A stretch of DNA of 64,000 bases. Source: Candidatus Woesearchaeota archaeon (GTDB lineage Archaea > Nanobdellota > Nanobdellia > Woesearchaeales > GW2011-AR15). The notes below the pieces were generated by a model. The model worked only from the letters and a program-made list of their open reading frames with translations. It did no database searches and was not told the origin of the DNA. Within the stretch, counting starts at the first letter, position 1. Each line of letters starts with the position of its first letter. Below are positions 30,138 through 52,197 of this stretch, one piece after another. Both the position numbers and the translations under genes were made by a program. The stretch is taken from positions 134,991-198,990 of the forward strand of contig JAVZBY010000003.1 of assembly GCA_038874655.1 (NCBI GenBank). Direction: 5' to 3'.

Positions 30138-31376
30138 TTAAATTTCGTGAAATTTTTCTTTTGTAATCTTAAAAAATAAAACAAAAGCAACCCAAGAAAC
30201 AAAAATTAAAAAACTTGAAATTATAATTGGAAAGTCAATTCTTATAGAAACAATAAAACCAGAAATTAAAGCAGGTAAAGACATTGCAAAACTTTGAACT
30301 GATTGAGAAATTCCCAAAATTTCTCCTTGTGATTCTTTATCTGCTAAGTTTGAAATAATTGCTGTTGCATTTGGTTGTGTTAAACCATTTGAAATAGCAA
30401 CAAAAGGAATTAAGTAATACAAATAAATCGCTTTATCTGGAAAGCTCATTGCAACTAAGCTTAATGATAATAAGATTAAACTAAATCTTAAAATTTGTTC
30501 TGGTAAAAATTTTTTTGATAATTGTCTCGTTAAAATTCCTTGTGTCAATGCAACACATAAACCCATATAAGCAAATAAATCCCCAATCTGACTTTGTGAA
30601 AAATTAAATTTTTCTATTAAGTAAACCTGTAAAAACTGTGTATAAAAATTAAAACCAATTGTAAATAAAAAGATAATCATAAACATTAATCTCAAATTTT
30701 TCATTGCAAATGCTTTTTTTAAATTTTTAAAACCTGTAAATACATTAATTTCCTTATGTAATTTATATTTTAAGGTTTCATTAAACCTAAAAATAACTAA
30801 AATTATATTAATTGCTGATAAAAAAGCAGCAAAAAATATAGGTGTTGTATTATTGAATAAATAAAAAAAAGTAGCGTCTGAAAGTTTTCCTCCTATAAAA
30901 GGTCCTAATATAAATCCTAATCCAAAAGCCATTCCTATTAAACCAAAATTTTTAGGCTTTTCTTGTTCATTACTTAAATCAGAGATTGCAGATAATGCAA
31001 TAGATATATTTCCCCCAGTAAAACCATCAATAATTCTTCCTATAAACAATAATAAAACATTTTTTGTTATTAAAGCAAAACCAAAAAATAAATATCCTAA
31101 AAAAGTGCCAAATAAAGAAATTAATAATATCTTTTTTCTTCCATATCTATCTGATAATGCACCTAATATTGGAGAACCAAAAAATTGTGCAATGGGAAAA
31201 CTTGATATTAATAAACCTAAAAGGATTGTTCTTTGTCTTAAAGAAAAATAGCTAGGTAAAATACCATTTGTATCTAAAAACAAATGCCCTAATATTGGAA
31301 TAACTAAACCAACACCTAATAAATCTAAAAAAACAGTAAAAAAAATAGTAAAAAGTTGTTTGTTTTGATTTTGCAT
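30138..31376 (-). CDS. MFS transporter
   Basis: 12 TM. GALSDRYGRKKILLISL (MFS motif A), GRIIDG. Confidence 0.8.
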   Translation of the reverse strand: MQNQNKQLFTIFFTVFLDLLGVGLVIPILGHLFLDTNGILPSYFSLRQRTILLGLLISSFPIAQFFGSPILGALSDRYGRKKILLISLFGTFLGYLFFGFALITKNVLLLFIGRIIDGFTGGNISIALSAISDLSNEQEKPKNFGLIGMAFGLGFILGPFIGGKLSDATFFYLFNNTTPIFFAAFLSAINIILVIFRFNETLKYKLHKEINVFTGFKNLKKAFAMKNLRLMFMIIFLFTIGFNFYTQFLQVYLIEKFNFSQSQIGDLFAYMGLCVALTQGILTRQLSKKFLPEQILRFSLILLSLSLVAMSFPDKAIYLYYLIPFVAISNGLTQPNATAIISNLADKESQGEILGISQSVQSFAMSLPALISGFIVSIRIDFPIIISSFLIFVSWVAFVLFFKITKEKFHEI

Positions 31377-31414: not shown

Positions 31415-31696
31415 CTAATCTTCTTTTTCATCGTTTATATCTGATTCATGTAATTCTTCTAATTCTTCTTCAATCTCTTCTTCAACTTTTTCTTGTCTTT
31501 CTTCTTGCATCTCTAAATCTTTTACAACATCTGCTAATTTTAACCTTAATTCTTGCTCTGAAATCACTCCTTTCTGTATCAATAGATCTATTAAAGTATT
31601 CAAAACTATATTATTATTTTGTACAATATCCTCTATTGTAATATCATGTCCATGATTATGCCCACATTCACATGAACCATCTTCACAACATCCCAT
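31415..31696 (-). CDS. small protein with N-terminal Cys/His metal-binding cluster and acidic tail
   Basis: MGCCEDGSCECGHNHGHD followed by helical Glu-rich sequence. Last gene of the copper operon. Confidence 0.4.
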   Translation of the reverse strand: MGCCEDGSCECGHNHGHDITIEDIVQNNNIVLNTLIDLLIQKGVISEQELRLKLADVVKDLEMQEERQEKVEEEIEEELEELHESDINDEKED

Positions 31697-31784
31697 TTTG
31701 ATTTCCTCCTTAAAGTTTTATTTTCTTATATTTATTCAAAACAAAAAGTTAGAGTTTTTAATTATTATTAAATCTATGGTTTTA

Positions 31785-34049
31785 TTAATCAATATTATCC
31801 TTACTCATTAACAATGTATTACTAACAACACTAACACTTGAAAAAGCCATTGCTGTTCCTGCAATAATAGGGCTTAATAACAAAGGATAAAATAATCCTG
31901 TAGCAATTGGTATTCCTAAAACATTATAAAAAAATGCCCAAAATAAATTTTGCTTTATTTTTCTGATTGTTAATTTACTTAGATTTATTGCTTTAACAAA
32001 AGACATTAAATCATTATTCATTAAGATTATATCACCTGTTTCCATTGCTATATCTGTTCCTGATCTCATTACAACTCCAATATCTGCCTGAGCTAATGCT
32101 GGTGCATCATTTATTCCATCTCCTACCATAGCAACATATCCCTTTTTTTCAGATTGTAATTTTTTAACATAATTTAATTTTTCATCAGGTAAAACATTAG
32201 CAAAATAATTTATTTTTAACTCATTAGCAATTGATTTTGCTGTTTTTTCATTATCGCCTGTTATCATATAAATCTCCATCTCTTGTTCCTTTAATTTATT
32301 GATAACCTCAATAGCATTTTCTCTTAATTTGTCTTTAATTCCAATGACACCTAATAAACTAAAGTATTCTTTTTTGTTTTTTAGAGTTTTCTCAGCAACT
32401 AAAACTATTGTTTTTCCTTCATTTTGAAGTTTATCTAAAATTTCAAAATATTCTTTCTTTAAAACTATTTTATTTTTTTCTAAGAATTCTTTTATGAAAT
32501 TTAAACTTCCAACAAAATATTCCTTATTTAATATTACTCCTTTAATCCCTTTACCAGAAAAAGATTTAAAATTTTTAACATTATAATATTCTTTTGAAAT
32601 TTTTTCATACTCATTAAGAATTGCCTCTCCTAAAGGATGCTCTGAATTTTTTTCAATTGATGCAACAATCTTTAAAAAACCTTCTTTTGTTAATTTATAT
32701 TTATCATTAGAAAATATAATAACATCTGAAACAACTGGTTTTCCAACTGTTAATGTTCCTGTCTTATCAAAAACAACATACTTTACTTTATGCAATTTTT
32801 CTAATGCCTCAGCGCTTTTTATTAAAATACCTTTTTGAGCTCCTAAGCCAGTTCCAACCATTATTGCTGTTGGAGTAGCTAATCCTAATGCACATGGACA
32901 TGCAATTACTAAAACAGAAACAGAATTAATTATAGCCAATTCTAAATTTTTAAAAACAAAAAACCAAATACTAAAAGTTATTAAAGAGATTAATAAAACA
33001 ATAGGCACAAAATAACTTGAAATTAAGTCCGCATATCTTTGTATAGGTGCTTTTTTATTTTGTGCATCTTCTATTAATTTAATAATATTGGCTAATGTTG
33101 TATTTTCTCCAACAGAGGTAGCTTTAAATTTAAAACTTCCATTTTTATTAATAGTCCCTGCAAAAACCTTATCATTTATTTTCTTTTCAATTGGCAAATG
33201 CTCCCCAGTAAGCATACTTTCATCAACAAAAGAATTTCCTTCTATAATAAATCCATCAACTGGTATTTTTTCTCCTGGTTTCACAAATAAAACATCATTT
33301 TCTTTAACTTCATCAACACTAATTTTAATTTCTTGTCCATTTTTTATTAGAGTTGCAATTTTCGGACTTAGATCAATTAATTTTTTAATTGCTTCATTTG
33401 TTTTTGACTTTGCTTTTGCTTCTAAATATTTGCCTAATAGAACCAAAGTAATAATTATAGTTGATGCTTCAAAATACAAACCATCTCCACCAATTATCAT
33501 AGAATAAATACTGAAAAAATAAGCTGCACTTGTTCCTAATGCTATCAATGTATCCATATTAGCAGTTTTATTTCTAAGAGAAGCAAAAGCTCCTTTATAG
33601 AATCTCCTCCCAGAAATAAATTGCACTGGTGTTGCTAAATAAAATAAAATTAATTCTTGATAAGGAATCATTATTTTTAAAAACATAAATACCATACCTA
33701 TAATAAAAGAAGGAATTGCAAAAATACTTGAAAATATTAATAAAAACTTTAATTCCTTTAATTCTTTTTTCTGACTTATTTTTTCATCAAAATTAAAAAC
33801 AACTCTATAACCCAATGAATTAATTATATTAATTATTTTTTCATCATTAACCGAATTTCTATCATATTCAACAAATGCTTTTCCATTTGCATAATTAACA
33901 TTAACTTCATTAATGCCATTTATCTTTGTCAATGATCTTGTAATTAATAATGAACAACTAGCACAATGCATTCCTGTAATTGAAAATGTTTTTTTTACTA
34001 GATTTATATTATTAATGTTATTATTAAGATTATTACTATTATTTTTCAT
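31785..34049 (-). CDS. copA: copper-translocating P1B-type ATPase
   Basis: N-terminal HMA GMHCASC, CPC motif [27 protein letters not shown], and the TM MxxSS-like region. Confidence 0.9.
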
Positions 34050-34053
34050 TTTA

Positions 34054-34815
34054 TCATCTCAAATCTGATTCAATTAAAGGAATAAAATGAGTCATATCAA
34101 TAATAGAGTTAGTTTTATTTATAATACCAACAACATGCACATTTATTCCAAAAAAATCATCAATCTTATCACCTGATTTTTGAAATAATTTTTCTGAAAT
34201 CATCATACTTGCTTCATCAAATCCAATAACAACAGGATAATATGTTTTTCCGTTAATTATCTTCACATTATAATCTTTTATGTTGCCCTCCATTAACTCT
34301 AAATTGGGTTTATCTCCTAAACTATAACTATAAAATAATTTAGGCATTCCTTTATTTGTAAATTTAATAAAAAGTTTATTTTCAATTCCATTTATTTTAT
34401 AAAAATTTTCCTCAGATAAAAAATGCATATCATCAATCATTGTATTTGTTTTTTTCAATACGCCACCTATTTGGACATTTATGCCAAAAAAATTGTTTAT
34501 ATTATCATCAATTTTTGAAAATAGTTTTTCATTTTTCATCATTTCTGCCTCATTAAAACCTAAAACAATTTTATTATTTTCAATAGAAATTTTTCCATCA
34601 TTTAGTTTTAGTTTTTTTAATTCCTGCTCATTCACATAAGAAAAAACTTTCATTTCATTTTTCTCACTAAAATCTACTTTCATTTTTAAATTTTTAAAAA
34701 AATTTTCATCTATCATAACTGGTGAATATCTAAAATAAAAAAATGTGCCAATGAAAAGCATTATAGTTGTAATTATTATTGCAAATTTCATTAAAATCTG
34801 CCCCCGCAACCACAT
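34054..34815 (-). CDS. membrane-anchored exported protein with internal tandem duplication (unknown function)
   Basis: [36 protein letters not shown] is repeated as [36 protein letters not shown]. Confidence 0.45.
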
Positions 34816-35384
34816 CCTATTCTTGTAGTTTGATTATTATCTTGATTTGTTTTTTCTTCATTATTATCTTCTTTGGTGTTTTCATAAGATTGTGTTTTCA
34901 ATTCATTATTCTTTGACTCATCTATCTTTGAATCATCTGAAACAACATCAAAATAGCCAACATACATATTCATAGAGCATTGTATTCTTATTCTTCCTTC
35001 TTTTGTTGGAGTAAATTCTATAATATTATCTCCTTGCCTCACATTTTTAAAGACATTAAACTGAGGAATTACTATTGATCTTGCACAACCATAAACAGAA
35101 TTTAAATCAACCAGCATCTTAACAGGAACATCTTTTTTTAAAACACTCGGCTGTAATTCATAATTTCCTTTAGCATTTATAATTAAATTAACATTTTGAA
35201 AACCAAAATCTTGATTATTAATATTATTTAAATTTGCATTATTATTTACATTAATATTTTGATTAATACTTTGTTCTTTTGTGTTTTCTTTCAAAATATT
35301 AAAATCATTCATCAATATATTTCTTGAAGAGATAATTGTTAATAATAAAATAACAATTCCAAAGACAATAACGACTGTTTTCAT
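34791..35384 (-). CDS. exported cupredoxin-like domain protein with C-terminal CGCGG motif
   Basis: VKMLVDLNSVYGCARSIVIPQFN...IIEFTPTKEGRIRIQCSMNMYVGYFDVV resembles the cupredoxin_1 fold signature. N-terminal TM. Confidence 0.45.
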   Translation of the reverse strand: MKTVVIVFGIVILLLTIISSRNILMNDFNILKENTKEQSINQNINVNNNANLNNINNQDFGFQNVNLIINAKGNYELQPSVLKKDVPVKMLVDLNSVYGCARSIVIPQFNVFKNVRQGDNIIEFTPTKEGRIRIQCSMNMYVGYFDVVSDDSKIDESKNNELKTQSYENTKEDNNEEKTNQDNNQTTRIGCGCGGRF

Positions 35385-35433
35385 TTTTTCACCTTTTTCA
35401 TTTAAAATTTTTTAATATTGTTAATTTTTAAAA

Positions 35434-36330
35434 TCAAATAGCTAAAACTGACTTAGGACCAAAATAAATTATTAAAAGCAATAAAATCAAAAACAATGCT
35501 GAATATGAAGCTAATGTTAAAAAATCAATATTATTAATCTCATATTTTTTATTTTCTGCTAATTCTTCATAAATCATATATGATAAAAATAAAAAGATTA
35601 ATCCATTTAAGAAAAAATAAATCGGACTAAAGATATTCAAATTATCATTTAATAACATTACTGAAATCATTGCTCCCATTGTTCCTGCCATTATGCCAGA
35701 CATTGAACCCTGTAAAGCACCCATAATACCACAACATTGTCCAGTAATAAAACCAACAAAAAAACCTATTAACATTCCTACTAATGCTCCAATAAAAAAG
35801 CCATTTGTTATTCCAAAGATATAACCAATCATCATTCCTGACTGCATCCCAAAGGTCATTCCAATCATCATTCCTGTCATGCATGTAATTTTAGTTTTAT
35901 AACTTAAAAAGTGCCATAAAACACTTGAAATTATTGCTAAACTAAAATTCAAGTAAATAAAATATTGTAAATATTTTACAAAAGATAATTTAAAAGCAAA
36001 AACAAAAACAGCATTAACAAAAATTAAAACAAAAAATAAAGAAATAAAATATTTTATTAATTTGTATTCTAAAAAATATTTATGCTTATTTTCAATAAAA
36101 TCCCTAAATCTTTCTGAAAATGTTTTTCTTTCAAAGCTTAATGAAGCCCTATAACCTAATTCTTTTATTTTTTTGATATATTTTTCAGGTTTTTCAGATT
36201 CATCTATCTCAATATGATCATTATTAATTTTTACATTTTTATCATTACTAAATGCCTTTTCTAAAACTTTTACACAACTCTCGCATTCAATATCTGGAAT
36301 ATAAATTTTTGTTTTTTTCATATAAATCAA
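35434..36330 (-). CDS. HMA (CxxC) domain fused to a Met/Gly-rich polytopic membrane domain (Ctr-like MxxxM motifs)
   Basis: N-terminal IPDIECESCVKVLEKA ferredoxin-like HMA, then TM helices MTGMMIGMTFGMQSGMMIGYIFG...GQCCGIMGALQGSMSGIMAGTMGAM. Confidence 0.6.
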   Translation of the reverse strand: MIYMKKTKIYIPDIECESCVKVLEKAFSNDKNVKINNDHIEIDESEKPEKYIKKIKELGYRASLSFERKTFSERFRDFIENKHKYFLEYKLIKYFISLFFVLIFVNAVFVFAFKLSFVKYLQYFIYLNFSLAIISSVLWHFLSYKTKITCMTGMMIGMTFGMQSGMMIGYIFGITNGFFIGALVGMLIGFFVGFITGQCCGIMGALQGSMSGIMAGTMGAMISVMLLNDNLNIFSPIYFFLNGLIFLFLSYMIYEELAENKKYEINNIDFLTLASYSALFLILLLLIIYFGPKSVLAI

Positions 36331-36521
36331 CCTAAAACTTTATAGCCTTCATCCTCAATTATTTTTTTAATATCCTCAAAAGAGATTTTTTTATCATCAA
36401 ACTCAACATCTGCTTTTCCAATAACTACATTTGCTTTAACTCCTTTTTCTTCCAAAGCAATCTTTATCAAACTAACACAACTTTTACAATGCATACCATT
36501 AATAATCATAGTTTTTTTCAT
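36327..36521 (-). CDS. copZ: copper chaperone
   Basis: 64 aa, INGMHCKSCVSLI HMA fold. ATGA overlap with the downstream gene. Confidence 0.85.
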   Translation of the reverse strand: MKKTMIINGMHCKSCVSLIKIALEEKGVKANVVIGKADVEFDDKKISFEDIKKIIEDEGYKVLG

Positions 36522-36632
36522 AAAAAAGAGAAGAATGAAACACCTTAAAAAGTATTATTTGAAATTAACATGAAACTAGTTTCAATTTAAAAAAATAAAT
36601 AAAATAAAAAATATAAAAAGAAATATGATTAA

Positions 36633-37202
36633 TCAATTCCTCAATATCACAACATTAGTCATTCCTCTTCTCTTTCTTTCAATTAAACCCTTTCCTTCTA
36701 ATTTATCTAAAATCCTGGTTATTTTTACTTTGCTATAATTAGTTTTCTCAACCAATTCTGATTGAAATATTGTTCCTTGTGATTCTACTATTTTATCATA
36801 TACTAATTTTTCATCAGGCAATAAATCCAAAATTCTTTTTTTTATTATTTCTTTTTCTGTTTTTTCAGATTCTTCATTTTTTTCAATAATAAAATTTCTT
36901 TTAAACTTGCTCTCAAACAAAAAATAAATTCCTAAAGCAATCAAAGAAACAGATAAAACACTTCCAAAAATATACACTAAAAAATTTCTGTTTTCATGCA
37001 AGCAAGTTCCATCATCTAAAAAACAAGTTCCTTCATTTTTAACATATAGATTAATATAATAATCTTCTCTTGCTTTAAACATAAAAAGCATAACAGCAAG
37101 TAAAATCCCAATAAAAATAACAACAAAAGCAAAATTTTTATTCATAATAATTTGTAAAATATTTAAATTTAAAAAAGTTATTTTTAATTTCTCTAAAATC
37201 AT
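36633..37202 (-). CDS. membrane-anchored winged-helix transcriptional regulator with extracytoplasmic Cys pair
   Basis: Two TM segments flanking CFLDDGTCLHENRNF. C-terminal wHTH SELVEKTNYSKVKITRILDKLEGKGLIERKRRG. Confidence 0.5.
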   Translation of the reverse strand: MILEKLKITFLNLNILQIIMNKNFAFVVIFIGILLAVMLFMFKAREDYYINLYVKNEGTCFLDDGTCLHENRNFLVYIFGSVLSVSLIALGIYFLFESKFKRNFIIEKNEESEKTEKEIIKKRILDLLPDEKLVYDKIVESQGTIFQSELVEKTNYSKVKITRILDKLEGKGLIERKRRGMTNVVILRN

Positions 37203-37226: not shown

Positions 37227-37868
37227 TTAGTCAAAATAAAAATTAAATCTTTTTTCATCACACATTAAGCCTATAATAACATTAGGACTATCCCATTTTA
37301 TTTGATTATAAGATTCAATATCCTGATTAGAAAAAATACAATGTAAAATAGGATGTGTATGTAATTCAATTAGAGTTTTATCATCACAAATTTCAGATAC
37401 TACTTTATAAACATCACTTCCATAAATTTTTGGTATATAAATTCCTTTAACATTATAAACTTGATAACCTAAATTTTGCTCATTGGAGATATTACCATAT
37501 AAACACATCTTAATTTCTGATTTTTGATTTTGTCTAAATATAGAAAGTAATGCATTGTAATTTTCTTTCCCAATGATAATTTTCTTATTATTCAAGATTA
37601 TTTCATAATTATCATTAATTTCAGTACTTATAATTTTTCCAAATAATATATTTAATATATGAAATCCCAACAAATTACTAATAAGCAAAAAAATAATAAA
37701 AAATGTGATTAAAATAATATAGGTTTTTTTAAGAATTTTTTTTAATTCTGATTCTTCTTGTTGTGATTCTAAAATTTCATCTTCTAACTCAATTAAATTA
37801 TATTCCAAATTTTCTTCAGATTTATTCAAATTCTTTAAATTATCTTCATTATTTTGTTTTTTGCTCAT
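37227..37868 (-). CDS. membrane-anchored JAMM/MPN+ motif protein (putative metalloprotease/deubiquitinase-like)
   Basis: E...HTHPILHCIFSNQD = HxHx7Sx2D JAMM motif with upstream Glu. N-terminal TM ILITFFIIFLLISNLLGF. Start taken at MSKKQ. Confidence 0.5.
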   Translation of the reverse strand: MSKKQNNEDNLKNLNKSEENLEYNLIELEDEILESQQEESELKKILKKTYIILITFFIIFLLISNLLGFHILNILFGKIISTEINDNYEIILNNKKIIIGKENYNALLSIFRQNQKSEIKMCLYGNISNEQNLGYQVYNVKGIYIPKIYGSDVYKVVSEICDDKTLIELHTHPILHCIFSNQDIESYNQIKWDSPNVIIGLMCDEKRFNFYFD

Positions 37869-38629
37869 AAATAAACACTCAATAATATAATTAAACCTAA
37901 TACAAAACAATATATTGAGAAATAACTAAATTTGTTGGTTTTAATAATTCGTAGTAAAAATTTCAATGATAAATATCCAGAAATCATTGAAAACAAAACT
38001 CCAATAAATGCAAAACTTAAATTTTCAATTTGCCCAATATTTCTAATTTCTAAAATTGTTGCACCAAAAATTGGTGGGATAGCCATTAAAAAAGAAAATT
38101 TTGCTGCTTCCTCTTGCTTTATTCCTTGAATTAATCCTGTTGAAATTGTAATTCCTGATCTAGAAACACCAGGTAAAATTGCAATTGCTTGACTTACACC
38201 CATTAAAAATGTGTTTAAAAAATTTAAATTCTTATCTTTTATTTTTGGATATTTTGATAAAAATAAAACTATTGAAGTAAATATCCATGCAAAACCTACA
38301 AAAGCTAAATTTGAAAATGCTCTCTCTATATAATCATTTAAAAAAAAACCAACTAATGTAATAGGAATTGATGCAAAAATTAACATTAAAGCTAAATTTA
38401 TATATTTCTTTTCTCTTTTTAAAACACCTAAAATTAATTCTAAAATTTCCTTTCTAAAAACAAATAAAATTACTAATAAAGAACCAAAATGCAACAACAC
38501 ATCAAAAATTATTGGTTGCTTTATTTTAAAAATAGTTTGAAACAAAACTAAATGTCCTGAACTACTTATAGGAAGCCACTCAGTAATGCCTTGTATAATA
38601 CCTAAAATTATTGCTTCAATTAGATTCAT
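37865..38629 (-). CDS. uppP: undecaprenyl-diphosphatase (BacA/UppP family)
   Basis: GIIQGITEWLPISSSGHL and PGVSRSGITIS motifs. Confidence 0.85.
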   Translation of the reverse strand: MNLIEAIILGIIQGITEWLPISSSGHLVLFQTIFKIKQPIIFDVLLHFGSLLVILFVFRKEILELILGVLKREKKYINLALMLIFASIPITLVGFFLNDYIERAFSNLAFVGFAWIFTSIVLFLSKYPKIKDKNLNFLNTFLMGVSQAIAILPGVSRSGITISTGLIQGIKQEEAAKFSFLMAIPPIFGATILEIRNIGQIENLSFAFIGVLFSMISGYLSLKFLLRIIKTNKFSYFSIYCFVLGLIILLSVYL

Positions 38630-51951: not shown

Positions 51952-52086
51952 GCGCAGGTAGTGAAGTGGTCAAACACGATAGACTCAAGAAATTTGAGTG
52001 TTGAGCTTTATGCTATGAAAAACACTTGCCCATTATGAGGAATCTATTCCCTTAGTGGGTTCGCAGGTTCGAATCCTGCCCTGCGC
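51952..52086 (+). tRNA. tRNA-Leu (anticodon CAA), type II variable arm, ~50-nt intron at the canonical 37/38 position
   Basis: GCGCAGG acceptor paired with CCTGCGC, anticodon stem ATAGA/TCTAT with loop CTCAAGA + insert, variable arm CCC-TTAGT-GGG, T-arm GCAGG-TTCGAAT-CCTGC. Confidence 0.65.
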
Positions 52087-52197
52087 AGTTTTTATTTTGA
52101 TTTAAAAAATTTATTCTATCTAATTAAAAAGAACATTTATATAATAAGAAAGATTTGTTATAGTTATAATTGTTATAAAATAGTGTGAGGTGAGCAT

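Follow-up and report, generated by a model that had tools for sequence, protein, structure and literature searches.

Which of the genes around copZ and copA in a Woesearchaeota genome belong together, and what might the proteins encoded between the chaperone and the exporter do? The question is raised by a stretch of 64,000 nucleotides from a Candidatus Woesearchaeota archaeon (contig JAVZBY010000003.1; the whole stretch is called the window here), in which an earlier note, made from the letters alone, had seen a seven-gene copper-handling operon on the minus strand. We refer to its genes, in the order of transcription, as G1 to G7. On balance, the locus probably represents a copper-resistance (cop) regulon of Woesearchaeota, in which the membrane protein G3 and the cupredoxin G4 would provide a Cu(I) route across the membrane that is fed by CopZ. 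All seven open reading frames (ORFs) are present where they had been placed, and the motifs quoted from them were all found (CFLDDGTC, the CxxC of the HMA domain, the string MTGMMIGM..., the end CGCGG and MGCCEDGSCECGHNHGHD). The features of the locus are as follows.

36633..37145, minus strand: G1, membrane-tethered winged-helix-turn-helix (wHTH) regulator, predicted to consist of a transmembrane (TM) helix TM1, an outer loop C-x6-C-x-H, TM2 and a cytoplasmic wHTH
36571..36584, no strand: candidate G1 operator, the perfect 14-bp palindrome TGAAACTAGTTTCA
36536..36552, minus strand: TATA-like box CTTTTTAAGG (36543-36552) together with the half-site GTTTCA (36536-36541)
36327..36521, minus strand: G2, CopZ-type HMA copper chaperone of 64 amino acids (aa), motif MHCKSC
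35434..36321, minus strand: G3, predicted cytoplasmic HMA domain (PDIECESC), amphipathic helix and seven Met/Gly-rich TM helices
34791..35384, minus strand: G4, membrane-anchored CupA-like cupredoxin (Cupredoxin_1) with C100, C136-S-M-N-M140 and a GCGCGG tail
34054..34791, minus strand: G5, N-terminal anchor and two copies of a ~100-aa unit, predicted to be MacB-periplasmic-domain-like
31785..34049, minus strand: G6, CopA, P1B-1 Cu(I)-exporting ATPase with a single N-terminal HMA domain
31415..31696, minus strand: G7, orphan of 93 aa with a Cys/His-rich N-terminus, a helical middle part and an acidic tail

The extent of the unit was assessed by a synteny census of the best 80 of 462 loci that a G3 profile found among GTDB species genomes; the window proteins were searched against the six-frame ORFs of these 80 loci. 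G3 is present in all 80, G4 directly downstream of G3 in 76, and copA in 72. A G1-type regulator, located upstream of copZ or downstream of copA, occurs in 37 loci. G5 was found in eight of the 80 and G7 in none, so that their membership in the cluster, as proposed in the earlier note, is not borne out. In most of the loci a small HMA/CopZ gene lies directly upstream of G3, and the start and stop codons of the two overlap or abut. The gene order copZ, G3, G4, copA is kept over 80 species-level genomes at 36–91% identity, and the arrangement is thus beyond chance adjacency. Because of these locus counts, the conserved evolutionary unit is copZ-G3-G4-copA plus the regulator, rather than seven genes. 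By their labels, nearly all of the loci are from Woesearchaeota or Nanoarchaeota or simply from an ‘archaeon’; the label ‘uncultured Methanosarcinales’ is found on about twenty TPA assemblies, and ‘bacterium’ on one.

That the seven genes are mere neighbours, and that only copZ and copA handle copper, is hardly credible in view of this order. Such a reading could point to G5 and G7, which are not conserved with the cluster, and to flanking genes for MFS, UppP and JAMM proteins, which share the strand without a functional link. It is at odds with the HMA domain on G3, with G4 being a CupA homologue with intact copper ligands, and with the conservation of the operator. It is contradicted for G1 to G4 and G6, and it may hold for G7.

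The spacing of the genes also speaks against a single seven-gene transcript. ‘Overlapping or abutting’ is correct for copZ/G3 (gap of 5 nt), G4/G5 (overlap of 1 nt) and G5/copA (gap of 4 nt), but not for G1/copZ, G3/G4 and copA/G7. The G1/copZ spacer of 111 nt contains a promoter and the candidate operator, which implies that the transcript of G1 is distinct from that of copZ to copA. G3 and G4 are separated by 49 nt, and the 88-nt spacer between copA and G7 contains a separate AAGGAGG ribosome-binding site. With G1 upstream of the conserved promoter/operator and G7 having its own ribosome-binding site, one operon of seven genes had to be given up. The longest ORF for G1 reaches 37202; its start is most likely M20 (MNKNFAF..., 36633-37145), where the homologues begin. 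G3 starts with the ATG at 36321 and is 295 aa long, in agreement with NCBI, while the start of G5 is at 34791 (245 aa).

The assignments of G6 and G2 could be confirmed. CopA (G6) scores 634 bits against TIGR01511 (cutoff 397) and carries the complete P1B-1 signature: CPC384 in TM6, YN708 in TM7 and MAFSS734 (MxxSS) in TM8, together with the catalytic motifs TGE281, DKTGT428, HP471 and GDGIND643 (GDGxND) and the N-terminal CASC29. G2 has the MxCxxC loop and matches the Pfam HMA model with E = 3.8e-9 (37.2 bits, cutoff 24.8). Against NCBIfam CopZ_Bs it reaches 48.5 bits, which is under the equivalog cutoff of 91. G2 is thus an HMA chaperone, though not a named CopZ equivalog.

The earlier note had taken G3 for a fusion of an HMA domain with a Met/Gly-rich polytopic domain outside the described families. 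This holds true: no Pfam or NCBIfam model covers the membrane domain, the Pfam scan having included 149 family representatives. The HMA–7TM Met/Gly-rich family as used here follows our own definition, drawn up without a curated family as reference. At E ≤ 1e-3 the family has 772 homologues, each with a length of about 300 aa, and a search of 1.84 billion representatives with a profile of the membrane domain only yielded 683 clusters at 50% identity. Pfam assigned HMA to 38 of the 149 representatives and a C-terminal Cupredoxin_1 to two; HisKA_3 with HATPase_c, DUF7343/MarR and C2H2 were single cases. The AlphaFold2 model of G3 (pLDDT 90.9) consists of the HMA domain, an amphipathic helix and seven helices (83-109, 114-140, 147-173, 175-197, 199-225, 229-255 and 267-287). 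Neither a structure comparison nor a search of PDB sequences with the TM profile revealed a PDB relative of the TM part.

In an alignment of 30 G3 sequences the CxxC cysteines C13 and C16 are invariant, as are H137, T146, M148, the sequence G-M-M-x-G-M, Q160, N173, C197, E252, E253, E256 and many Gly and Met residues with a period of four in TM3–TM5; C196 is kept in at least 90% of the sequences. Over the whole breadth of the family, conservation is strongest for the Met/Gly pattern and weaker for the cysteines. The family motifs are T-C-M-x-G-M-M-x-G-M-T-x-G-M-Q in TM3 and G-x-M-x-G-x-M-x-G-x-M-G-G-T-M-G-x-M in TM5. Further marks are a CC pair at the turn between TM4 and TM5, a Y-E-E sequence ending TM6, and the pairing with a Cupredoxin_1 gene.

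The resemblance to Ctr-type copper permeases that had been noticed in these repeats is to be taken as an analogy only. G3 shares with Ctr1/CTR proteins the Met-rich TM helices, the MxxxM spacing, the GxxxG packing, and Cys/His-containing termini of the kind that hand copper to chaperones. Ctr proteins, however, are trimers with three TM helices, whereas G3 has seven predicted helices and an HMA domain; it did not match Pfam Ctr at E ≤ 0.1, nor did it match any solved fold.

The cytoplasmic N-terminal modules of G3-like proteins appear interchangeable: an HMA domain, two HMA domains, a C2H2-like module, a CxxC stub or a CC motif. In P0275, P0265, P0305 and P0298 the HMA domain is replaced by a Cys-rich N-terminus (MTCCPDD..., MTEQCCGGGE..., MADACCDGE...). 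These sequences look G+C-richer, their C-terminal tails end in E-M-x-C-G-A-M-M, and their N-terminal CC-[ED]-[DG] resembles the start of G7 (MGCCEDGSCEC). Another representative, P0307 (257 aa), joins a G3 N-terminus, extending from the HMA domain to TM3 and breaking off in TM4, to the C-terminus of a G1-type wHTH. It was discarded as evidence for a sensor, being probably a deletion or an assembly chimera of neighbouring genes.

The membrane domain is also found outside the lineages that dominate the census. Among the named members are proteins from a bacterium of the candidate phyla radiation (CPR), Candidatus Magasanikbacteria (P0350, MCX6781126.1; fused to a cupredoxin), and from Micrarchaeota (P0250, MBI5229382.1). 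Such members hint at exchange among ultra-small archaea and bacteria that share habitats.

G4 turned out to be less anonymous than the ‘exported cupredoxin-like protein’ of the earlier note; the cupredoxin part of that description stands. The window protein alone gives only a weak match to Cupredoxin_1 (PF13473; E = 0.011), a domain that most family members carry. A profile built from 30 G4 sequences matches Streptococcus pneumoniae CupA (2mry/4f2e) with E = 2.7e-22 over 92 residues, and the cupredoxin metal-binding domain of S. pneumoniae CopA (4f2f) with E = 1.8e-14. C100, C136, M138 and M140 are invariant in the 30 sequences and align with the S1/S2 ligands of CupA (C...CGMNM). By this profile match and the aligned copper ligands, G4 is classified as a new archaeal branch of the family of the characterized Cu(I) chaperone CupA.

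According to a review (PMC7558416), CupA is a Cu(I) chaperone with a membrane anchor that occurs in a few streptococci only, where it catches copper on the cytoplasmic membrane and delivers Cu(I) to the cupredoxin-type domain of CopA. G4 has in common with it the N-terminal anchor, the Cupredoxin_1 fold family and the Cys...Cys-x-Met-x-Met ligands, and, as in the copY-cupA-copA cluster of S. pneumoniae, it is encoded beside copA under a copper-operon promoter. The differences are considerable. The G4 subfamily is archaeal and CPR-bacterial and is predicted to face outward; more than 90% of its members end in GCGCGG, a tail that CupA does not have. Its partner is a 7-TM Met-rich protein, to which it is fused in some cases. 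Delivery from the cytoplasmic side to a cupredoxin-type N-terminus of CopA does not apply to G4, since CopA begins here with an HMA domain; CopZ is present as well, and the regulator is a membrane wHTH instead of CopY.

The orientation of the two proteins can be deduced from charge distribution and from natural fusions. For the G3 family, the Lys/Arg count in the predicted inner segments is 7.0 before TM1, 1.7 between TM2 and TM3, and 2.3 between TM6 and TM7; in the predicted outer segments it is 0.6, 0 and 0.03, and 0.9 at the C-terminus. In P0232, P0239 and P0350, Cupredoxin_1 comes after TM7 of a G3-like domain; P0345 has a histidine kinase after TM6 of such a domain. From this bias and from these fusions we infer that the seven helices of G3 run with the N-terminus inside and the C-terminus outside. 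With this topology, H137, C145, C196/C197 and E252/E253 would lie next to the HMA domain, close to the cytoplasmic face, and the CupA-like domain would lie outside. As the fused cupredoxins follow TM7, and given the charge bias, G4 probably faces outward.

Proteins that combine a polytopic membrane domain with a G4-type cupredoxin ending in GCGCGG are also known with DsbD_2 (PF13386) as the membrane part (e.g. P0217 and P0224); DsbD_2 proteins can be fused to HMA as well. They bring up the idea that G3 acts like CcdA or DsbD, passing reducing equivalents from its cytoplasmic CxxC to keep C100, C136 and the GCGCGG tail of G4 reduced. G3 does have conserved cysteines (C145 and C196/C197) besides the CxxC domain, and a Cys-rich external protein would presumably need shielding from oxidation. 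All of these cysteines, however, lie at the predicted cytoplasmic face and none near the outer one, and they are less conserved over the family than Met and Gly. The Met/Gly-rich membrane domain of G3, which lacks a Pfam model, is not detectably related to that of the DsbD_2 fusions, as hhalign gave a probability of 0.3% for the G3 TM profile against P0224. With this value, and without a Pfam match, G3 was rejected as a DsbD_2/CcdA relative, and a redox function is very unlikely.

The kinase fusion P0345 (HisKA_3/HATPase_c) bears on a different possibility, namely that G3 does not transport copper but binds it in the membrane as a sensor, buffer or scaffold, which may report Cu(I) of the membrane or the cytosol to G1 or CopA, or simply dock and load G4. 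The interchangeable N-terminal modules, and the fact that the residues conserved throughout the family are Met and Gly rather than charged ones, would agree with this. The kinase was found in just one of the 149 representatives, though, and the sole wHTH fusion, P0307, looks chimeric. Seven packed helices, a ligand-rich path that spans the bilayer and recurrent fusions to external cupredoxins fit a conduit better, and we regard a non-transporting G3 as distinctly unlikely.

If G3 is a conduit, its direction has to be considered. The two proteins could serve copper uptake: G4 would capture external copper and possibly reduce Cu(II), the Met-lined G3 pore would lead Cu(I) inward in the manner of Ctr1, and the HMA domain would deliver to CopZ. 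CupA indeed reduces Cu(II) in vitro (PMC7558416). The MxxxM/GxxxG-rich helices of G3 recall Ctr pores, and according to textbook knowledge the membrane potential and the near-zero free copper of the cytosol favour inward flow. Since G3 has no ATPase and shows no obvious energy-coupling element, import remains a serious rival. We nevertheless consider it unlikely. G3 and G4 lie between copZ and the exporter gene copA behind one conserved promoter/operator, where co-induction of an importer would be futile; few copper enzymes that would have to be supplied are known from Woesearchaeota; and a kinship with Ctr is spoken against by the missing Pfam and structural matches and by seven helices instead of three. 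As G3 and G4 share their promoter with the exporter CopA, a role in detoxification, by outward movement or by hand-off, is favoured.

In the reading that we favour, a CopZ-fed Cu(I) route as part of a copper-resistance regulon, G1 would sense copper outside the cell via its Cys-x6-Cys-x-His loop and lift repression at TGAAACTAGTTTCA. The derepressed transcript, probably leaderless, would then yield CopZ, G3, G4, in some genomes G5, and CopA. CopA and G3 would each receive Cu(I) from CopZ through their HMA domain, and G3 would carry it along the period-4 Met ladders of TM3 and TM5, between the ligands at the cytoplasmic face (H137, C145, C196/C197, E252/E253) and the outward CupA-like G4, which would bind or buffer Cu(I) outside. 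G5 may be an optional extracytoplasmic accessory of CopA.

G1 was correctly recognized as a two-helix membrane-tethered wHTH protein. TM1 is followed by a ~30-aa loop and by TM2, from which a linker leads to the wHTH, which scores 44.9 bits against Pfam DUF7343 (PF24034; cutoff 27.6) and 32.0 bits against MarR (cutoff 24.6). With the wHTH necessarily on the cytoplasmic side, the loop that joins the two helices must be extracytoplasmic; the Cys pair is located in it, as had been suggested, within the conserved motif G-x-C-x6-C-L-H. The alignment of 38 cop-linked G1 homologues revealed that this motif is kept in most, not all, of them, and that their recognition helices form two subfamilies. No member of the CsoR, CopY or TRASH families was among the Pfam and NCBIfam matches of the nine cluster-region proteins scanned.

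The palindrome TGAAACTAGTTTCA has no other exact match within the window. The TATA-like box and GTTTCA, a third half-site, follow it about 27 nt upstream of the copZ ATG. In 86 related loci the palindrome core GAAACNNGTTTC was found 14 times, as compared with 0.8 expected (200 shuffles: mean 0.8, maximum 5). Each match either directly follows a G1-type/DUF7343 gene or immediately precedes copZ or the gene that comes next, in the constant layout of palindrome, TTTATAAGG and GTTTCA. The arrangement TTTATAAGGTGTTTCA is kept in ten loci (L002, L005, L008, L016, L021, L042, L063, L078, L081 and L085). Where a regulator is visible beside a match, it is of the recognition-helix subfamily found in the window, or a DUF7343 gene. 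This is good comparative evidence for palindrome and half-site as a candidate operator that brackets the TATA box of copZ, in which case repression would work by occlusion.

In another lineage, represented by the loci of P0232 (L081–L083), copA and a DUF7343 regulator are followed by this palindrome, then by five small genes without annotation, of which one has a weak SfLAP match, and then by a G3-like TM–cupredoxin fusion. The pair of operator and regulator thus travels with different downstream genes.

Several points weigh against the Cu(I) route and its control as set out here. The regulator gene adjoins the cluster in less than half of the loci, the exact palindrome core occurs in only about 11 distinct related loci, and the binding of G1 to it we infer from their co-location only. 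G3 has no visible energy-coupling element, and a passive Met-lined pore would favour import. Its ‘ladder’ and ‘ligand cluster’ were read from helix positions, not from distances in three dimensions. For G4, the outward orientation is argued from parity and from a weak charge bias: the window protein has one Lys/Arg before its helix and two after it, and the bias is clear only in homologues with long N-terminal extensions. CupA, finally, is reported to work on the cytoplasmic side and to feed a cupredoxin-type CopA domain, in place of which CopA has an HMA domain here.

G5 contains an internal duplication, as had been noticed; it is real (40% identity, E = 3e-19), but the unit comprises about 100 aa and not about 40. 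From structure prediction, each unit appears to have a fold like that of the MacB periplasmic domain; G5 did not match Pfam MacB_PCD at E ≤ 0.1. It differs from the periplasmic core of MacB, LolC and YknZ (type VII ABC transporters) in the tandem duplication of the unit and in lacking an FtsX-type TM domain and an ABC partner in the cluster. Among the closest relatives, L085 (10288-10704) has a single-repeat form of 138 aa, while the window and L001 have the duplicated form of 245 aa. This size variation suggests a recent internal duplication or the loss of one.

For G7, no relative was found with Pfam, NCBIfam or the metagenome scan, and the PDB gave only a spurious match to a designer PPR protein. 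By phmmer it is absent from the 80 loci at E ≤ 10; the contigs of the closest relatives end before the position of G7. It is probably a real gene, as an ORF of 93 codons is unlikely to arise by chance at this DNA composition (G+C content of the window about 24%). G7 is probably lineage-specific and may lie outside the copper system, its link to copper being the Cys/His-rich N-terminus alone.

The genes flanking the cluster lie on the strand of the cop genes and are not conserved with it. A Tet(A)-like MFS efflux gene (30138-31376, minus strand) begins 38 nt 3′ of G7; an MFS gene is near the cluster in three of the 80 related loci. Directly 5′ of G1, an ORF of 227 aa (37227-37910, minus strand) encodes a protein with one predicted TM helix and the JAMM/MPN+ motif HTHPILHCIFSNQD (HxHx7SxxD), which had no Pfam match. 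It adjoins G1 only in the window and in the closest full-length relative (L002); that it processes the membrane-tethered regulator is conceivable but unsupported. Further upstream, an ORF for a membrane protein of 254 aa (37865-38629, minus strand) was read as undecaprenyl-diphosphatase (UppP) from sequence alone.

A metagenome-assembled genome of Candidatus Woesearchaeota at NCBI encodes a protein with 100% identity to G3 of the window. A tRNA match with an intron (136 nt, window positions 51952-52087, plus strand), which ARAGORN missed in bacterial mode, supports the archaeal origin of the window, which is DNA of a DPANN archaeon. A scan for bacterial promoters and terminators was uninformative in this archaeal DNA (73 sites, 74 expected).

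The type of operon, CopA, CopZ and the CupA-family protein are already known. Classical copZ-copA clusters with CsoR or CopY (Bacillus, Enterococcus) and the Saccharolobus copR/copT-copM-copA cluster, in which the regulator and the chaperone have a TRASH domain, likewise combine a P1B-1 CopA with HMA domain, a small HMA chaperone and an adjoining transcription factor. The locus described here differs from both by two extra conserved genes, G3 and G4, between copZ and copA, and by a membrane-tethered regulator with an external Cys/His loop. DNA-binding domains that are tethered to the membrane, with a sensing part beyond or within it, occur in bacterial ToxR and CadC and in ArnR of Sulfolobus. 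G1 is distinguished from these by its order of TM1, Cys/His loop, TM2 and a C-terminal MarR/TrmB-like wHTH, by its linkage to copper genes, and by a predicted operator that brackets an archaeal TATA box. For the G3 membrane domain, the pairing of G3 and G4, an outward CupA variant with a Cys tail, and a membrane-tethered copper regulator with its operator, no description was found in Pfam, NCBIfam or the literature searched.

To our knowledge, copper handling in archaea has been described for only a few model organisms, and for the DPANN archaea there is practically no description. A fixed copper module of four genes is retained by hundreds of ultra-small archaea and by some CPR bacteria, and the two genes in its middle are unstudied. 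As a tentative proposal, the 7-TM domain of G3 may represent an unrecognized class of ATP-free Cu(I) conduit in DPANN and CPR organisms, which would link HMA/CopZ proteins to an outward CupA-type cupredoxin under the control of a membrane-tethered sensor of extracellular copper. The G3 family is a candidate for a new copper conduit, having neither a Pfam model nor a solved structural relative. The CupA family is extended into the archaea, with a different predicted orientation and a different partner, and G1 with its conserved candidate operator offers a testable archaeal one-component sensor of external metal.

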